DNA of 64,000 bases, taken from Candidatus Omnitrophota bacterium. GTDB taxonomy: Bacteria; Omnitrophota; Gorgyraeia; Zapsychrales; Fredricksoniimonadaceae. The stretch spans positions 31,166-95,165 of the forward strand of contig CAWHFJ010000009.1 in assembly GCA_963828495.1 (NCBI GenBank), in the 5' to 3' direction. Positions within the stretch are counted from its first letter, which is position 1, and each line of letters starts with the position of its first letter. Below, one piece after another: positions 1 through 6,000 of this stretch. The position numbers were made by a program.

Positions 1-3000
1 CAGCCCAACTTCAACGCAAGTGTGTAAACCTTGACTATTTGATCATAATTGCGGGGACTTAACGTCAGTTTGATCTCGATGGCCTGGTCAGGAAAACGCC
101 TTTTTACCTCTCGCATAGTGTGGACCGCCTTGCGGAAAGCCCCGGCTCCCCGCAACGCATCGTTAATTTTTTCCAATCCATCAAGGCTAATATTTAACTT
201 GAAACGCAAATGCCGGTTTCTCTGCACAAAGTGCACTATTTTATCTTTCAGCAGTCCATTGGTAGTGATACATTTAAAACTCCCCGGGTACATTTTTTCT
301 ACAAGATCTACGATCGCCTGCAGATCATCCCGCAGGAATGGCTCTCCCCCGGCCAAAGAGATATCGTAATCTTTGCCATATATCTGATAGCCTTTTTGGA
401 CAACTTTATCCGAGAGAATTCGGCTAATATCATCAAGACCAAGATCCGCACGACGGCCTGATCGATGCCACATGTCACAATGGACGCATCGACCGTTACA
501 CTTATCCGTAATGATCCAATTAATGGATTTCAGGCCCATTATTTCTTTTCCGATGTCTTCCATCCCCAAATATCTTGCAAGAATTACAAACCCTGTTATT
601 ATTTTTAGCGATGGAACGTCCTGTTCTCCCGCTAGAAATCGTTATTGAGATCACCGGCAGATGCCGGCTGCTTTGTCCTTACTGCACCCGTCGCAGAACC
701 GCCGACGCCCCCTTAAAAGACATCAAAGCAACACTGGATGAAGCCGCAAGTCTTGGCATTAAGGTCGTTCGCATCACCGGTGGAGAGCCCCTCCTGCATC
801 CGGATATCGCAACGATCCTCACTTATGCCAAATCAAAAAAATTGGCCGTCATTCTCAACACTGCCGCAGAGAACATCAGCCCTGCCCTCATGAAGACCAT
901 CATCACCAACGTCGACGCGGCACTTGTCTCTTTGCAAGGACATAACGAGAAGGCCAACGCCTCTTATACCCGTTCAAAGTTTTCTTTTCTTGATAAAATT
1001 AAAAATATTTTCCTCTTAAAGACCTATGTACCGACCTTGTGGCTGGGGACAGTCATTACCCCCGCTATGACGCGGTCTTTTGCAAAATTTGTTCCGCTGA
1101 TCAATACAATTAACCCCTCGGCCTGGATCCTGCTGCGTCCCATCAGCGGCTTGAATAAGGACCTAAAAAAAATGGACATCCCCTTCTACCGTGCCCTTAT
1201 ACTTCAAATCATGAAAGCCCGCCAAAAAAATATTAACGTCTTTATTGCCAACCCCATTCCCCTGTGTATCATAGGGGATCTGAGGATAGGCCAAGAAGCC
1301 TGCTTTGGCGCCAAATTCGACAACGGTCATGCCCGTATCGTGCGCAGTGCCCAAGGATTTTTTAAACCAAGCTACTTTTTAGAAACAAACTTAGGGGCCA
1401 CGATTAAAACGGCCTGGGGACATCCTTTTCTACGGGAACTTAACCGCACGGATTTTCTGCCAAACTTATGTCAACGCTGTCCTGTGCTTGACACTTGCCG
1501 CGGCGGATGTCGTGCCATGGCCCTTCACACCCACCAAACGGTCTTGGCGCCGGATCCGTTATTTGATCCGGCTATCGCCCAACAAGCCCTATCAAAGCCT
1601 TATCTAAAACATCCCTGCCCGTAAACCACTCCTTAGGGATTTTTGAGCTGACTTTCTGACTAATCGTGGCCTCTTTAACCGCTCTTGTCAGAGTGTTCGC
1701 GGTTAGCTCTTGAATAGATAAAATCTTAGCCCCAATCATTTCTTTTAACATGACAGCCCTGGCTGGCTGCTCATGAAACGACATCGATCCATAACCCTCA
1801 AAAGGAATAACCACTGCTTTTTTCCTGTATTTAAGCAACATCACCGAGGTGTGATAGGACGCCACCGAAACACAGACGTCACTCGTCCTTATCAATCCCT
1901 CATAATTACCCACGGCCCTGAGCAACGCCAAATTATTAACCTTCTTTTTGGCGACCAGTGTTGAAAAGAAATGCCACTCCTGCGGTGTCGTCGACGGTCC
2001 TGCAACTACGGTCAAATAATATTCTTCCCCCAAGAGATCGCTGGCACGAACAGCCTGAGCGATCAGTTTAGGATAATACGCTCCCCCGCCCCGAAGAACT
2101 GCCACCCGGCAAGCGCCTTGGGGAACAGATGGTTTAGAAAGATGGGTATTTTCGTCCTCACGTACCACCTCTTGCCGGGGCAAAAGATACCCCGCGAATA
2201 TAATCTTTCGCGCATTTCTTTTAAAGAAATCTAAATATCTTTGCCTATCATAGGCTCGGGCAAAAGAATTAGCAATAAGGTCTTTCTCCAGAGCCGGTGA
2301 GAAAATGATAATCTGTTGATATAATTTACATATCTTCTGACGCCATTCATTATGGGCTCCTGTTAATAATGGATATCCTGCGATGGCCCATACAGTGGCG
2401 CCTTGCAAGGATACTTGAACCAAGGACGGAAGCAATTCATGACGGCATTCCTCACGGCCCAAAGGGAAAAATTCTGTTATAAAAAGATCCGGTTTTTGAA
2501 AGGTAACAATATCCCTACACGCCCGGCTACGCTCACCGGCATCGGCTCCTGCCCCATGGATCGATTCCCTAAAATTACGACGATCCACCCATGTCCCCGG
2601 TAATGAATAGACTTTCCCTAGTTGATCTATTTTGGCCTGGGGCTGCGGCATACCCGCCTGAATAAAAAAAAGGTTCCCTTGCGGAAACCTTTTTCTAAAA
2701 ACCTCACCCACCGCCATAACGCGGGAGGTATGGCCAAAACACTCATAATGAGAAAAATAAATACCTGCTTTAAAACAAATTTTACTGCGCATTGACTGGC
2801 GGCTTAATAATTCTCCCCCAACATCGCGGCTCTCTTATATAGTTAATAGGATGAATGCGTCGTGATATTGGTGTGCGCGGCGCAATTAGGCGTCGGGCTA
2901 CCAGGAGTAACCGTATTCGTATGGCTTGTAGTGTCCCCGGACGAAATATCTGTCATGGCACCTACTACTCCCAACGCGGCGACGGTTGCCAATCCAACCT

Positions 3001-6000
3001 TTAAAATGGTCTCCTTGCTGACAAAACCGTCCTCATCTTTCATCAACTCACCAAGAGACCTAGTCATCGGGGTCGCTTTTTTAACGGCCTTACTTTTTAT
3101 TTTCTTTTTCATAAGGGGCTCCTTGTGTCCAACGTTGAAAAATCTCAGCGTATTTGTTGTCACCCAACAGATAGGAAAAAACTAATCTGAACTGATGCGT
3201 CAAAATCTGCTGCAGGCGCGAATCCCCCTTGGGGATAATATTCTTCTCCACAGCGTAATTCACTACAGGATCTATGCCTCGCCAGGGGCTGTAAACCGAA
3301 CGATAATTCCACAGATCAGAACACCCGGCAGTTAATAGATACAGTAGATTTCCCTTATTAAGCATGTCGTCATAATTTAAATCCATGATACTCCCCAACC
3401 GAAAAATATTATCTTCTAACATCCTTGCTTCATCGGTAGGGTAACACCCACCATCCGGCGCGTACGCCATCACTGCGCGAGCAGCCCCGCAGGGATTCAT
3501 CATATCCACATAACCTGAATCTCTCTTTAACAAAACCTTGGTCAAAATGGTCCTGGCCGTCCGCTCGCTTAAATGAGAGCCGGATAAATTTAACTTCATA
3601 ATATACGCCATCGCCTTGGTATAAAACACATTAAATTCTTCTGCCGTATACCCGATATCTTCCCAGCAAGAACAAGCGTACCCTATTCTATTAACCGGCC
3701 TTAAAGCAATCTCCCCTTGCCCCAAACGCAGGTACTCATCAACAATTCTCTCAGGATGTGCTAACGAATGTCTGGTAATAGTCGGTAACAGGTGGATCTT
3801 ACGCCCAAATGCCTTTGAGAAATGCGTGATTTTCTCAACCACCTGGGCATGCGTCCCTTGCCCGTCAGCAAACATCTTGTTTTTATCATGCACATCTGCC
3901 GGACCGTCCAATGACGTACACACATCAACATCATGGTCTACTAAAAAACGCATTTTCTCATCATCCATAAGCAACAGATTGGTCACCAGAACAATGTTAA
4001 GATTCTTCCCTAATGTGTTGAACTTACGCGCATGCTCGGTCAAAAATTCAACCACCGGCCAATTAAGCAAGGGCTCTCCCCCTTGAAACTCCAGCGTCAC
4101 TGACTTGTTACGCACATCGAAAAGGTATTGCAAAACGCGACTGGCCGTCTCAATGGACATATCCTCAGCAGAAGACCCTCCCCGGGCATGACAATAAGAA
4201 CAATGGAGATTACACCGTTTTGTTACAACTGCAATATGAAGACTTGTATCTGTAAACAGATTCGCATTTAAGTTCCTGTACCCCTCAATAACGCGGCGTA
4301 TATTATCCTCATCTACGATCAATCCCCGTTCCAACAAACGATTAAATAAAGCGCCTCCTTCCAACACGCGCAGGCTGTGCAGTTGGCGGAACTCTTGTTC
4401 ATTCAAAGCGTCCCAACATCCCATCATGTTGGTCACCAAATATTTATCATTGATTTTTTCGCAATTATACGGAAGTATGGAGGCACAAACGGTTGTTGTC
4501 ATAGAAAAATGCTTTGTTATTTCTTCTTCTTAGATGCTGTCTTTGCTTTCGGGGCTGTTTGTTTTTCTTCCGCCTCAAGCTCCTTGATCAAATTCTCGAT
4601 CTCTTTTTCTTCTGCCTCTTTGACAATTGACGGGGAAGCTGAAAAAAGAGCCCGTTGCAACAAAATTTTCATATTCTCTGCATTGATCTTCAAGCTGCTA
4701 AAATAATGCGCATAATTAAGCAGCTCATCGGAAAATTCCAATGCCAGCTTTTGCAGGTCTTGGGCACCATTTTTAGGCTTAAGCCAAACGGCGACTAAAT
4801 CCTTCTTTTCTTCCTCAAGCCTGACATGGGCCCGATCCATAAAAGCATATCCGGAAGAATGAACAGACTGTAACGGATAAACCTTCAAATCAACCGGGAC
4901 TTTAATCCAATCGTCTACTTTTTCAAATTTTGCTACCATAAATATTCCTCCCAGAAATGTATCATTAACTTGAAAAGTATACCACACCCCCAAAGTATTC
5001 TACAATCTAATTTTTCAGTTTGCCAGTTAGCTTCGATTGTTTTCGACCTTGGTAAATTTTGGATTTACTTTTATACTTTCTAAAATCCCATAGCCCCCTC
5101 CATCCATTACAAACCAGCGCCCTCCAAGAATAGTTAGAACATCCGGCCCTGCGCCTCTCATGCCTAACGGGGACAACCTTGAATCGAAAACCATGCCATT
5201 GAACCCAACTGGTCATAAAACAATGACCGTTCTCCCCGAAAGGGAATCCGTCGAAAACTCTGCGCCGGAATATCTTTAAAGAACACCCGGCATCCCTAAT
5301 ACGATCGCCCAAAAAAATAAACCGGCAAAAAAAAGCCAGCCATGACCCCATGCACCTGGCCCAGCTATCCTGCCGGCTGACCCGAGATCCCACCACATAA
5401 TCAAAGTGATCCTTATCTTGCCATAATTTAAGTAATTCTTCCGGGGGATTTTGAAGATCCGCATCCATCATAGCCACCCATTCCCCGCGGCTGGCATCCA
5501 ATCCTTCTTTCAGGGCCGCAGACTGCCCTCTCCATTGCTGACGGGCAATAACCTTCATATAAGGATACTCCCCCGCCAGATCATTTAAAATGTCCAGAGA
5601 CTTATCTGTGCTGCCGTCATCCACATAAATAACCTCATGCTGACCCGGTAATAATTTCAATACGCAGTCCAGGCGGTCTTGAAGCAAACGTAAAGACCCT
5701 TGTTCATTCAATACAGGAATAATAACCGAACAGTCCATGTCTCTAAAATCTAGATAGGGAATAAACGGCAAAACGAGTATCCCCTTGTGTCCACTGTTTG
5801 ACCACAACGGCCTTACCCTTCTGTTTTATTAAAGAAACCGATTCCTGACATCTTCTCTGTGAAAATATGTCATCGATCAGATAAACTTTACGGGCCCTCT
5901 TAAAAGCCGCTTTCCTCCATAATGGTTCCTGCAAGAACCACCCTATATCCGTGGCCATAAAGGACGGCAAAGCGCTTGTAAATGTCTCCGGGAAACAAGC

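Follow-up and report, generated by a model that had tools for sequence, protein, structure and literature searches.

We studied a 64,000-nt stretch of contig CAWHFJ010000009.1 from a Candidatus Omnitrophota bacterium (referred to here as the window), and in particular a short open reading frame (ORF) on its minus strand, the translation of which is a peptide of 89 amino acids (aa; MKKKIKSKAVKKATPMTRSLGELMKDEDGFVSKETILKVGLATVAALGVVGAMTDISSGDTTSHTNTVTPGSPTPNCAAHTNITTHSSY). With a probability of about 0.58, we take this peptide to be the HxsA3-like ribosomal precursor of a variant His-Xaa-Ser (Hxs) maturation system in Omnitrophota, processed by a protease of the A24 family (Peptidase_A24). This reading is carried by the position of the gene in a conserved cluster with HxsB- and HxsD-like genes, by the His-Xaa-Asn/Ser motifs of the tail, by an invariant leader motif that parallels the leaders of Flp pilins, and by the co-occurrence of the peptide with one A24 subfamily. 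The gene, its ribosome-binding site and the parts of its product are as follows:

2843–3112, minus strand: precursor peptide gene, HxsA3-like family member (ATG at 3112–3110, stop codon at 2845–2843, 89 aa)
3119–3124, minus strand: Shine-Dalgarno sequence AAGGAG, read from the sequence, within the 3' end of the HxsB-like gene
3026–3112, minus strand: leader, residues 1–29, with a Lys-rich N-terminus followed by the conserved SLGELMKDEDG
2954–3025, minus strand: residues 30–53 (FVSKETILKVGLATVAALGVVGAM), with an amphipathic start (K+4, E+5, K+9) followed by 15–16 uncharged residues
2846–2953, minus strand: tail (core), residues 54–89, with H64-T-N66, C77, H80-T-N82 (N-I-T) and the C-terminal H86-S-S-Y89

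Conservation and Expression Context of the Peptide Gene

The 89-codon ORF is a real, conserved gene, present in a single copy in the window. A search of 5.8 billion proteins returned 194 homologues at E ≤ 0.1, the best 120 of which all had E ≤ 3e-25, were 58–81% identical to the window peptide and were mostly 84–95 aa long; the named homologues among those listed were all from Candidatus Omnitrophota. An exact-sequence lookup of the window peptide gave no record. A wider-family profile search returned 246 homologues, and the peptide profile matched 77 of 1.84 billion cluster representatives. Comparison with 10 orthologues gave ratios of nonsynonymous to synonymous substitution (dN/dS) of 0.12–0.39 with dS near saturation, indicating selection on the peptide reading frame. 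A preliminary description of this stretch, made from the sequence alone, had named a lack of conservation of the ORF as an outcome that would refute it, and the homologues and substitution ratios speak to that point in its favor. For the family comparisons below we used two alignments, one of 40 close members (A1) and one of 60 distant or divergent members (A2).

The peptide gene overlaps the upstream radical S-adenosylmethionine (rSAM) gene (4502–3090) by 23 nt, exactly as the preliminary description had it. The AAGGAG that it reported is also present, at a distance of 6 nt (CCCCTT) from the ATG rather than the 5 nt given there. Among the related loci whose called gene coordinates were read, five have an overlap at the HxsB-peptide junction (4, 23, 29, or 35 nt), which fits the translational coupling to the rSAM gene that had been suggested. 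No terminator-like site was found on the peptide strand directly 3' of the peptide gene.

Structural comparison was less informative. AlphaFold2 modeled a helix at residues 33–56 and a hairpin at residues 63–85 with a predicted local distance difference test score (pLDDT) of 52.8, too low for a fold search, and a profile search of Protein Data Bank (PDB) sequences with the peptide family returned nothing meaningful. The top profile match, a 4220-aa protein, was discarded as spurious, being an adhesin with repeats (DDGFYTINNAGVITITALGAASA) that resemble a portion of the profile.

Hxs-Type Neighbors and the Conserved Core

The genes that surround the peptide gene are:

3090–4502, minus strand: HxsB-like rSAM maturase, 470 aa, with the CxxxCxxC motif CNLHCSYC
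4517–4939, minus strand: HxsD-like small partner protein, 140 aa (ATG at 4939)
1572–2792, minus strand: glycosyltransferase of predicted GT-B fold (GT406), 406 aa, directly downstream of the peptide gene
611–1624, plus strand: second rSAM/SPASM enzyme, 337 aa, convergent with the operon and at the expected place of HxsC

The upstream rSAM enzyme aligned with the HxsB model TIGR03978 from end to end (profile positions 2–466 of 466) at 366.5 bits (cutoff 370; E 2e-109), its next-best family scoring 118 bits. Over its full length it shares 32% identity with a RefSeq-annotated HxsB, and its relatives in the PDB are the SCIFF-type rSAM enzyme 5wgg and anSME. The small protein encoded before it scored 27.2 bits with the HxsD model TIGR03976 (cutoff 50); orthologues of this protein (84–91% identical) carry precomputed matches to PF27806 (HxsD), and the window protein itself gave no HxsD match in a Pfam scan. 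For the window peptide, the sole specific model matched was that of HxsA3 (NF038309; 18.9 bits, cutoff 65, E 1e-3). The same model was matched below its cutoff by all 40 close and all 60 distant members, with a best E of 2e-12, and the HxsA model TIGR03979 gave no match to the window peptide.

On the other side of the peptide gene, GT406 gave a weak match to PF04101 and has only 105 homologues, all within this system. Its AlphaFold2 model, which is of high confidence (pLDDT 89.4), had MurG, OleD, CalG1/2 and UDP-glycosyltransferases as top Foldseek matches, with E down to 5e-14, and shows a GT-B glycosyltransferase fold. A conserved downstream gene of this kind fits the glycosylation of the tail that the preliminary description had considered. 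The best NCBIfam matches of the 337-aa rSAM enzyme were of the NirJ2, PqqE and MftC types, each scoring far under its cutoff, and HxsC was absent from its top 25 matches. Since it resembles Aeromonas HxsC in no more than a generic way (25% identity over the rSAM core, E 6e-6), we ruled out that this enzyme is HxsC. No gene lies between HxsB and the peptide, and HxsC is missing at the locus.

This arrangement recurs in related genomes. HxsB lies directly upstream of the peptide gene in 24 of 26 informative genome loci, which was the synteny check that the preliminary description had proposed, and GT406 and the second rSAM gene are present in most related loci. The conserved core thus consists of HxsD, HxsB, the peptide, the GT-B glycosyltransferase and the SPASM rSAM enzyme. 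It persists around peptides only about 35–50% identical to that of the window, where all five components are intact. We consider it highly probable that an HxsB/HxsD-type maturation system, which also comprises a second rSAM enzyme and a glycosyltransferase, acts on the peptide as its substrate and that the cell exports the product or anchors it in the membrane.

Related loci also contain genes outside this core. Most relatives, including distant ones, encode one or two paralogous Cys-rich secreted proteins (230–270 aa) after the peptide gene (L004, 8289–9812, and equivalent positions), which are missing from the window. Further Hxs-like modules occur in some relatives. In L001 (1140–5885), a second HxsD gene is followed by three more rSAM genes, and in L034 (300–16400), two tandem precursors of 140–142 aa with many H-x-N/S motifs lie among seven rSAM genes and an Asn-synthase-like gene.

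Tail Motifs

All three histidines of the window tail stand in H-x-[N/S] motifs, and the tail has a single Cys, in agreement with the recurring H-x-(S/T/N) triplets and lone Cys first described. In the close family, H64, N66, C77, H80, N82, H86, S88 and Y89 are invariant or nearly so, giving the consensus T-H-x-N, a variable stretch, then N-C-x-x-H-T-N-[VI]-T-T-H-[ST]-S-Y. Asn or Ser occupies the second position after 91% (A1) and 76% (A2) of tail histidines, compared to backgrounds of 26% and 20%, respectively. The H-x-S-Y C-terminus is found in 38 of 40 close and 35 of 60 distant members, the C-terminal Tyr as such in 39 of 40 and 45 of 60, and most family tails have one Cys. By its sequence, the tail is a His-Xaa-Asn/Ser variant of the His-Xaa-Ser theme, and it is presumably here that the rSAM enzymes and the glycosyltransferase act. 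Together with the HxsB-like neighbor and the conserved synteny, the enrichment of these motifs lends support to the proposal, already made in the preliminary description, that the peptide is an rSAM substrate.

Leader and Hydrophobic Segment

Only E27 and G29 are invariant across the 60 divergent members. The consensus around them is K-x-L-K-D-F-[MIL]-K-D-E-[DS]-G-F-[VI]-S-K-E-x-I-L-K-[VI]-G-L, as in F-M-K-D-E-D-G↓F-V-S-K-E (the arrow marks the putative cleavage site, here and below). RefSeq-annotated Flp pilin leaders read MTKLFTRFLKDESG↓ATAIEYGLI, i.e., the same F-x-K-D-E-x-G with Glu at +5, so that KDEDG of the window parallels KDESG of the Flp pilins. In an hhalign comparison of the peptide profile with a RefSeq Flp pilin, the Gly aligned with the Gly and the Glu at +5 with the Glu at +5, at a probability of 69%, and one family member carries the name "Flp pilus assembly pilin Flp," assigned independently by the pipeline of the Joint Genome Institute (JGI). 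Two features of class III signal peptides are present in the family: Gly at -1 of the putative cleavage site after a charged leader (E27 and G29, as above) and Glu at +5 (E34 in the window; Glu in 36 and Asp in 11 of the 60 members). We lean, somewhat better than evenly, towards the view that the invariant Gly marks cleavage between G29 and F30 by a dedicated A24 peptidase, as in Flp pilins.

The hydropathy of the peptide peaks at residues 36–50 (Kyte-Doolittle 2.18), and residues 30–53 are either a membrane segment or the h-region of a signal peptide. The preliminary description had set a transmembrane helix in a small membrane protein against a modified peptide. The hydrophobic stretch is indeed likely a membrane or export segment; it belongs to the same precursor and is not a true alternative. 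That description had missed the Hxs kind of the system, the invariant Flp-prepilin-like motif and the A24 peptidase of relatives.

Linkage to an A24 Peptidase and to Pilus Genes

Related loci carry a Peptidase_A24 gene of about 290 aa beside the second rSAM gene. The protein scored 33.9 bits (Pfam threshold 26.5), and both columns of its catalytic Asp residues (TDL... and GGDAKLF) are invariant in 13 aligned members. The A24 gene adjoins the peptide gene in 19 of 30 distinct loci, including loci whose peptides are only about 40% identical. In the reverse direction, we scanned metagenomes with the A24 subfamily and counted only matches flanked by 3 kb or more on the relevant side: 20 of about 24 such loci carry the peptide 0.8–6.6 kb away, and 3–4 do not. 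The co-occurrence of the peptide with this A24 subfamily holds whichever of the two is the starting point. A24 genes that are more distant likewise adjoin HxsB/HxsD-like genes, and one distant precursor with classical tandem HxS repeats and the same type of leader lies 455 nt from an A24 gene. The sole canonical pilin motif in a related locus was found in L021, about 8 kb from the peptide, and none of the other cluster proteins whose N-termini were read has a Gly followed by a hydrophobic N-terminus.

We also observed other precursors with the leader style DFL-x-EEG-x-I, in L095 (421–816), L082 (4984–5535) and L103 (7920–8474). One has classical HRSHSSHRSHSS repeats and two have long W-N-D-W-S-D acidic repeat tails; all three are close to A24 genes, and two are also near HxsB-like genes.

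In the window, the A24 gene is represented by a remnant:

571–629, plus strand: scar of a deleted Peptidase_A24 gene, found by tblastn of the L004 A24 protein against window positions 1–1500

Here YLARITNPVII (571–603) corresponds to A24 residues 163–173 and RWNVLFS (609–629), which follows it almost without a gap, to residues 289–295, and relatives have an intact A24 gene at this position. The local A24 gene of the window has been deleted and survives just as this scar, so the processing peptidase would have to come from a gene in another part of the genome. Canonical type IV pilin or minor-pilin-like genes at 20690–23588 (plus strand), e.g., one with KSGFSLVELLIVTAIFAFV at 21099–21512, show that ordinary prepilin processing is in use elsewhere in this organism and imply that a prepilin peptidase is among its genes. 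This pilin-like cluster is followed by a gene for a large 597-aa Thr/Asn-rich protein. Around the scar, window positions 1–630 are a decayed region with no intact ORF and with a minus-strand fragment (515–93) that resembles an rSAM core (23% identity to HxsB residues 92–232).

In about nine loci of the sub-clade nearest the window, the region directly upstream encodes two PilB/GspE-type ATPases, MshEN proteins and a PilC/GspF platform protein. L003/L009 (contig JADFXH010000004.1, about 10001–19520) contains two peptide copies and two A24 genes with a DDE transposase between them; the first peptide copy stands directly after PilC, with no adjacent HxsD or HxsB. No set of minor pilins sharing the leader was found, each locus having one peptide gene and rarely two.

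Comparison With Known Systems

The Hxs system of HxsD, HxsB, HxsC and HxsA (TIGR03976–TIGR03979) is an antiphage system in E. coli, with a periplasmic DNA-binding protein as its effector; a +8 Da change on the SHRSS motif and a non-canonical N-terminal cleavage dependent on HxsB, HxsC and HxsD were reported for it in the sole experimental study of an Hxs system (PMC13128918). The locus described here resembles that system in having an HxsB-like rSAM enzyme, an HxsD-like protein before it and a substrate gene after it, and its peptide, like Hxs substrates, combines a putative export signal at the N-terminus with several His-x-(small polar) motifs. The differences are as follows. HxsC is lacking, and what is conserved in its stead is another SPASM rSAM enzyme together with a GT-B glycosyltransferase. 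The leader of the peptide is Flp-like, and relatives keep a dedicated A24 peptidase with it. At 89 aa, the substrate has no room for the peptidoglycan-binding domain of HxsA (about 190–215 aa), which in Aeromonas carries GHRSHRSHSSHRSHSSHRSHYS and a C-terminal domain. Its tail has three dispersed H-x-N/H-x-S motifs and no basic residues, compared to five tandem basic HxS repeats. Finally, the phylum is Omnitrophota, whereas 99.7% of the reported HXS systems are from Pseudomonadota. The system works like Hxs and is not a member by the curated criteria: HxsC is absent, the HxsA and HxsA3 thresholds are not reached, and HxsB falls 3.5 bits short. The likeness to HxsA3 (NF038309) lies in a nearly end-to-end alignment (profile positions 5–75 of 81) and in matches by all 100 scanned members; unlike HxsA3 proteins, these score well below the 65-bit cutoff, and no member bears that name in any source.

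The peptide is also comparable to the Flp/type IVc (Tad) prepilins, with which it shares the leader F-[LM]-K-D-E-x-G, the Glu at +5 and a predicted mature size of about 60 aa. The neighboring A24 protein is similar to the TadV/CpaA type in having the peptidase domain at its N-terminus, with no Pfam match to the separate N-terminal domain of the PilD type. The peptide differs from Flp prepilins in that the Flp_Fap and N-methyl models fail, in the Lys at +4 and +9, in its shorter hydrophobic core and in a tail presumed to be a substrate of rSAM enzymes and a glycosyltransferase, for which our literature search found no case on any pilin. Nor are there TadA, TadB or TadC genes; the adjacent assembly machine, where present, is of the PilB/PilC type.

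A third comparison is with mycofactocin (MftA/B/C/F), which likewise combines a small precursor with an invariant terminal Tyr, a small partner protein, a SPASM rSAM enzyme and a glycosyltransferase. The present locus shows no match at the family level, its precursor bears an export segment, and its glycosyltransferase has a GT-B fold, whereas MftF is of the GT2 type.

Proposed Pathway and Alternative Explanations

From these comparisons we infer the enzymatic steps, cleavage site, topology and function of the peptide system. The peptide would be translated in coupling with the HxsB-like rSAM enzyme, and its leader (roughly residues 17–38) would be recognized in the cytoplasm by HxsB and HxsD. 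HxsB, the second SPASM rSAM enzyme and the GT-B glycosyltransferase would then modify the tail, the H-x-N/H-x-S motifs, the Cys and the C-terminal Tyr being the likely sites. Through residues ~36–53 the peptide would insert into the membrane with its N-terminus in and its C-terminus out, and the dedicated prepilin-peptidase-like A24 protease would remove the leader between G29 and F30, as for Flp pilins, leaving a mature product of about 60 aa with the modified tail outside the cytoplasm. In the sub-clade with PilB/PilC genes, these may handle the product. A more specific version of this proposal, which we hold only tentatively and at somewhat less than even odds, is that the Omnitrophota peptides are "mini-pilin" precursors, with a class III signal peptide of the Flp type, an outer tail of 30–40 aa modified in the cytoplasm by two rSAM enzymes and a glycosyltransferase, subsequent leader removal by A24 and, in some lineages, PilB/PilC. 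A conductive e-pilin was ruled out, as the predicted mature part has just two aromatic residues.

Several observations weigh against A24 processing within an Hxs-type system. The pilin models (PF04964 Flp_Fap, PF07963, TIGR02532) matched 0 of 100 members at E up to 10 (Pfam) or up to 1 (NCBIfam). The roughly 20 uninterrupted hydrophobic residues that follow the Gly in class III pilins are lacking, since FVSKETILK has Lys at +4 and +9. With K/R at +4, K at +9 and about 15 uncharged residues, the segment after the Gly is unlike pilin helices and nearer to a Sec h-region, and the residue at +1 varies, with K, D and N among those found. Many members have an A-x-A-like motif, [ST]-[DN]-x-[YF]-A, directly before the first His motif (SNSFA↓GH, DPAYA↓GH, EVNA↓QH, NAEA↓GC), suggesting cleavage by signal peptidase I. 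By eye, [AV]-x-A at +17 to +35 past the Gly was read in 39 of 60 members; the candidate of the window is the weaker S-S-G (TDISSG↓). The A24 gene is missing in 11 of 30 loci, no intact homologue of A24, PilB or PilC is detectable in the 64-kb window, and the PilB/PilC linkage, being confined to one closely related sub-clade, may reflect a single ancestral event. Finally, HxsB, HxsD and HxsA3 all score below their curated cutoffs, HxsC is absent, and the AlphaFold2 model of the peptide is of low confidence.

Some of these observations are what one would expect if the same Hxs-type rSAM and glycosyltransferase maturation acted on a precursor with a Sec signal peptide whose long, conserved n-region doubles as the recognition leader. 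Signal peptidase I would then cut after TDISSG, setting free about 30 aa as a soluble, modified peptide in the periplasm or medium, and A24 would act on something else or clear the leftover signal peptide. The stretch of about 15 uncharged residues after K38, with a small-x-small motif immediately ahead of the first His, is consistent with this, as is the failure of the pilin hidden Markov models to match any member, and the HxsA studied by experiment likewise carries a signal peptide and works in the periplasm (PMC13128918). A Sec signal peptide leaves unexplained, however, why an invariant E-x-G stands nine residues before the hydrophobic core and is identical to that of Flp leaders, and it gives no account of the reciprocal co-occurrence of the peptide with a dedicated A24 subfamily; moreover, small-x-small motifs are common by chance. 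We regard it as the less likely reading, albeit the main competitor, and note that the A24 and signal peptidase I routes may not exclude each other.

The C-terminal Tyr, so frequent in the family, would also be accounted for if the tail gave rise to a small redox cofactor or a molecule that binds metal, like mycofactocin or pyrroloquinoline quinone (PQQ), in which the SPASM rSAM enzyme acts on that Tyr (present in 39/40 and 45/60 members), the partner protein presents the peptide and the glycosyltransferase decorates it. PqqE and a mycofactocin maturase are among the best matches of the second rSAM enzyme, a glycosyltransferase belongs to the conserved core, and His, Asn, Ser and Thr abound in the tail. 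These rSAM matches are, however, all far below the family cutoffs, no MftD/MftE-like or PqqB/C/D-like gene is among the annotated cluster genes, and the export or membrane segment of the precursor is unlike cytoplasmic cofactor precursors, which makes a cofactor improbable. More improbable still is a periplasmic antiphage effector of the HXS kind, with a His-x-Ser array that binds incoming phage DNA electrostatically, even though the HxsB and HxsD relatives and an exported His-motif protein match components of the published system (PMC13128918). The tail, with no Lys or Arg, has two Asp residues and three dispersed motifs in place of five tandem basic repeats. The short peptide has no peptidoglycan-binding domain, and HxsC is missing; these features make a DNA trap unlikely here, and DNA binding of the published kind is ruled out by the lack of basic residues in the tail. 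PADLOC, too, gave just generic viperin rSAM matches, and the neighbors in the window are glycosyltransferases and housekeeping genes, not defense genes. An unmodified small membrane protein that is merely adjacent to rSAM genes we find scarcely credible: the hydrophobic stretch and nothing else speaks for it, while the overlap with HxsB, the tail motifs and the synteny are conserved, the last across about 35–100% peptide identity.

The leader points to a connection of peptide maturation with pilin-type processing that has not been reported, and a full-text search found no paper that combines a prepilin peptidase, a radical SAM enzyme and a precursor peptide. The reciprocal A24 link would join two unconnected fields, radical-SAM peptide maturation and type IV pilin processing. 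If the "mini-pilin" proposal is true, the peptide would be the first rSAM-modified subunit of a type IV filament and its pathway the first peptide maturation to use a prepilin peptidase as leader peptidase, neither having been reported in the literature that we found. It would further hint at the way in which processing of other Hxs substrates takes place, the published HxsBCD-dependent N-terminal cleavage being unexplained, and the A24 link offers a testable explanation for that non-canonical cleavage in HXS systems. The chemistry of Hxs-type rSAM enzymes is unsolved, with just a +8 Da change reported in one system, and this short and highly conserved substrate with three motifs would be a tractable model. 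For the uncultured phylum Omnitrophota, the product is a candidate surface or periplasmic structure; pili of Omnitrophota are thought to support host-dependent lifestyles.

Other Features of the Window

About 4 kb beyond the HxsD-like gene and about 5.6 kb from the peptide gene, the window encodes a 202-aa protein (8752–9360, minus strand) with a signal peptide followed by HSSGQSSGQSSGQSSGHSSGHSSGHSSGYSSGHRYGHNYGYSS, a His-x-Ser-like repeat array. This HSSG-repeat protein was considered as a second substrate and rejected, as none of the related loci has it and no match to an Hxs model was obtained.

Two genes on the minus strand are split: that for enolase, into overlapping ORFs (19737–20531 and 19261–19740), and that for a multi-pass membrane protein (6652–7275 and 5943–6821). 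Both are either real pseudogenes or products of assembly indel errors. At 23661–26975 (plus strand), the window encodes a 1104-aa FtsH-like protein with apparently three tandem AAA+ modules (GPPGCGKTYLAKAMA occurs three times) and a C-terminal region that we took by eye as the protease domain, an unusual architecture.

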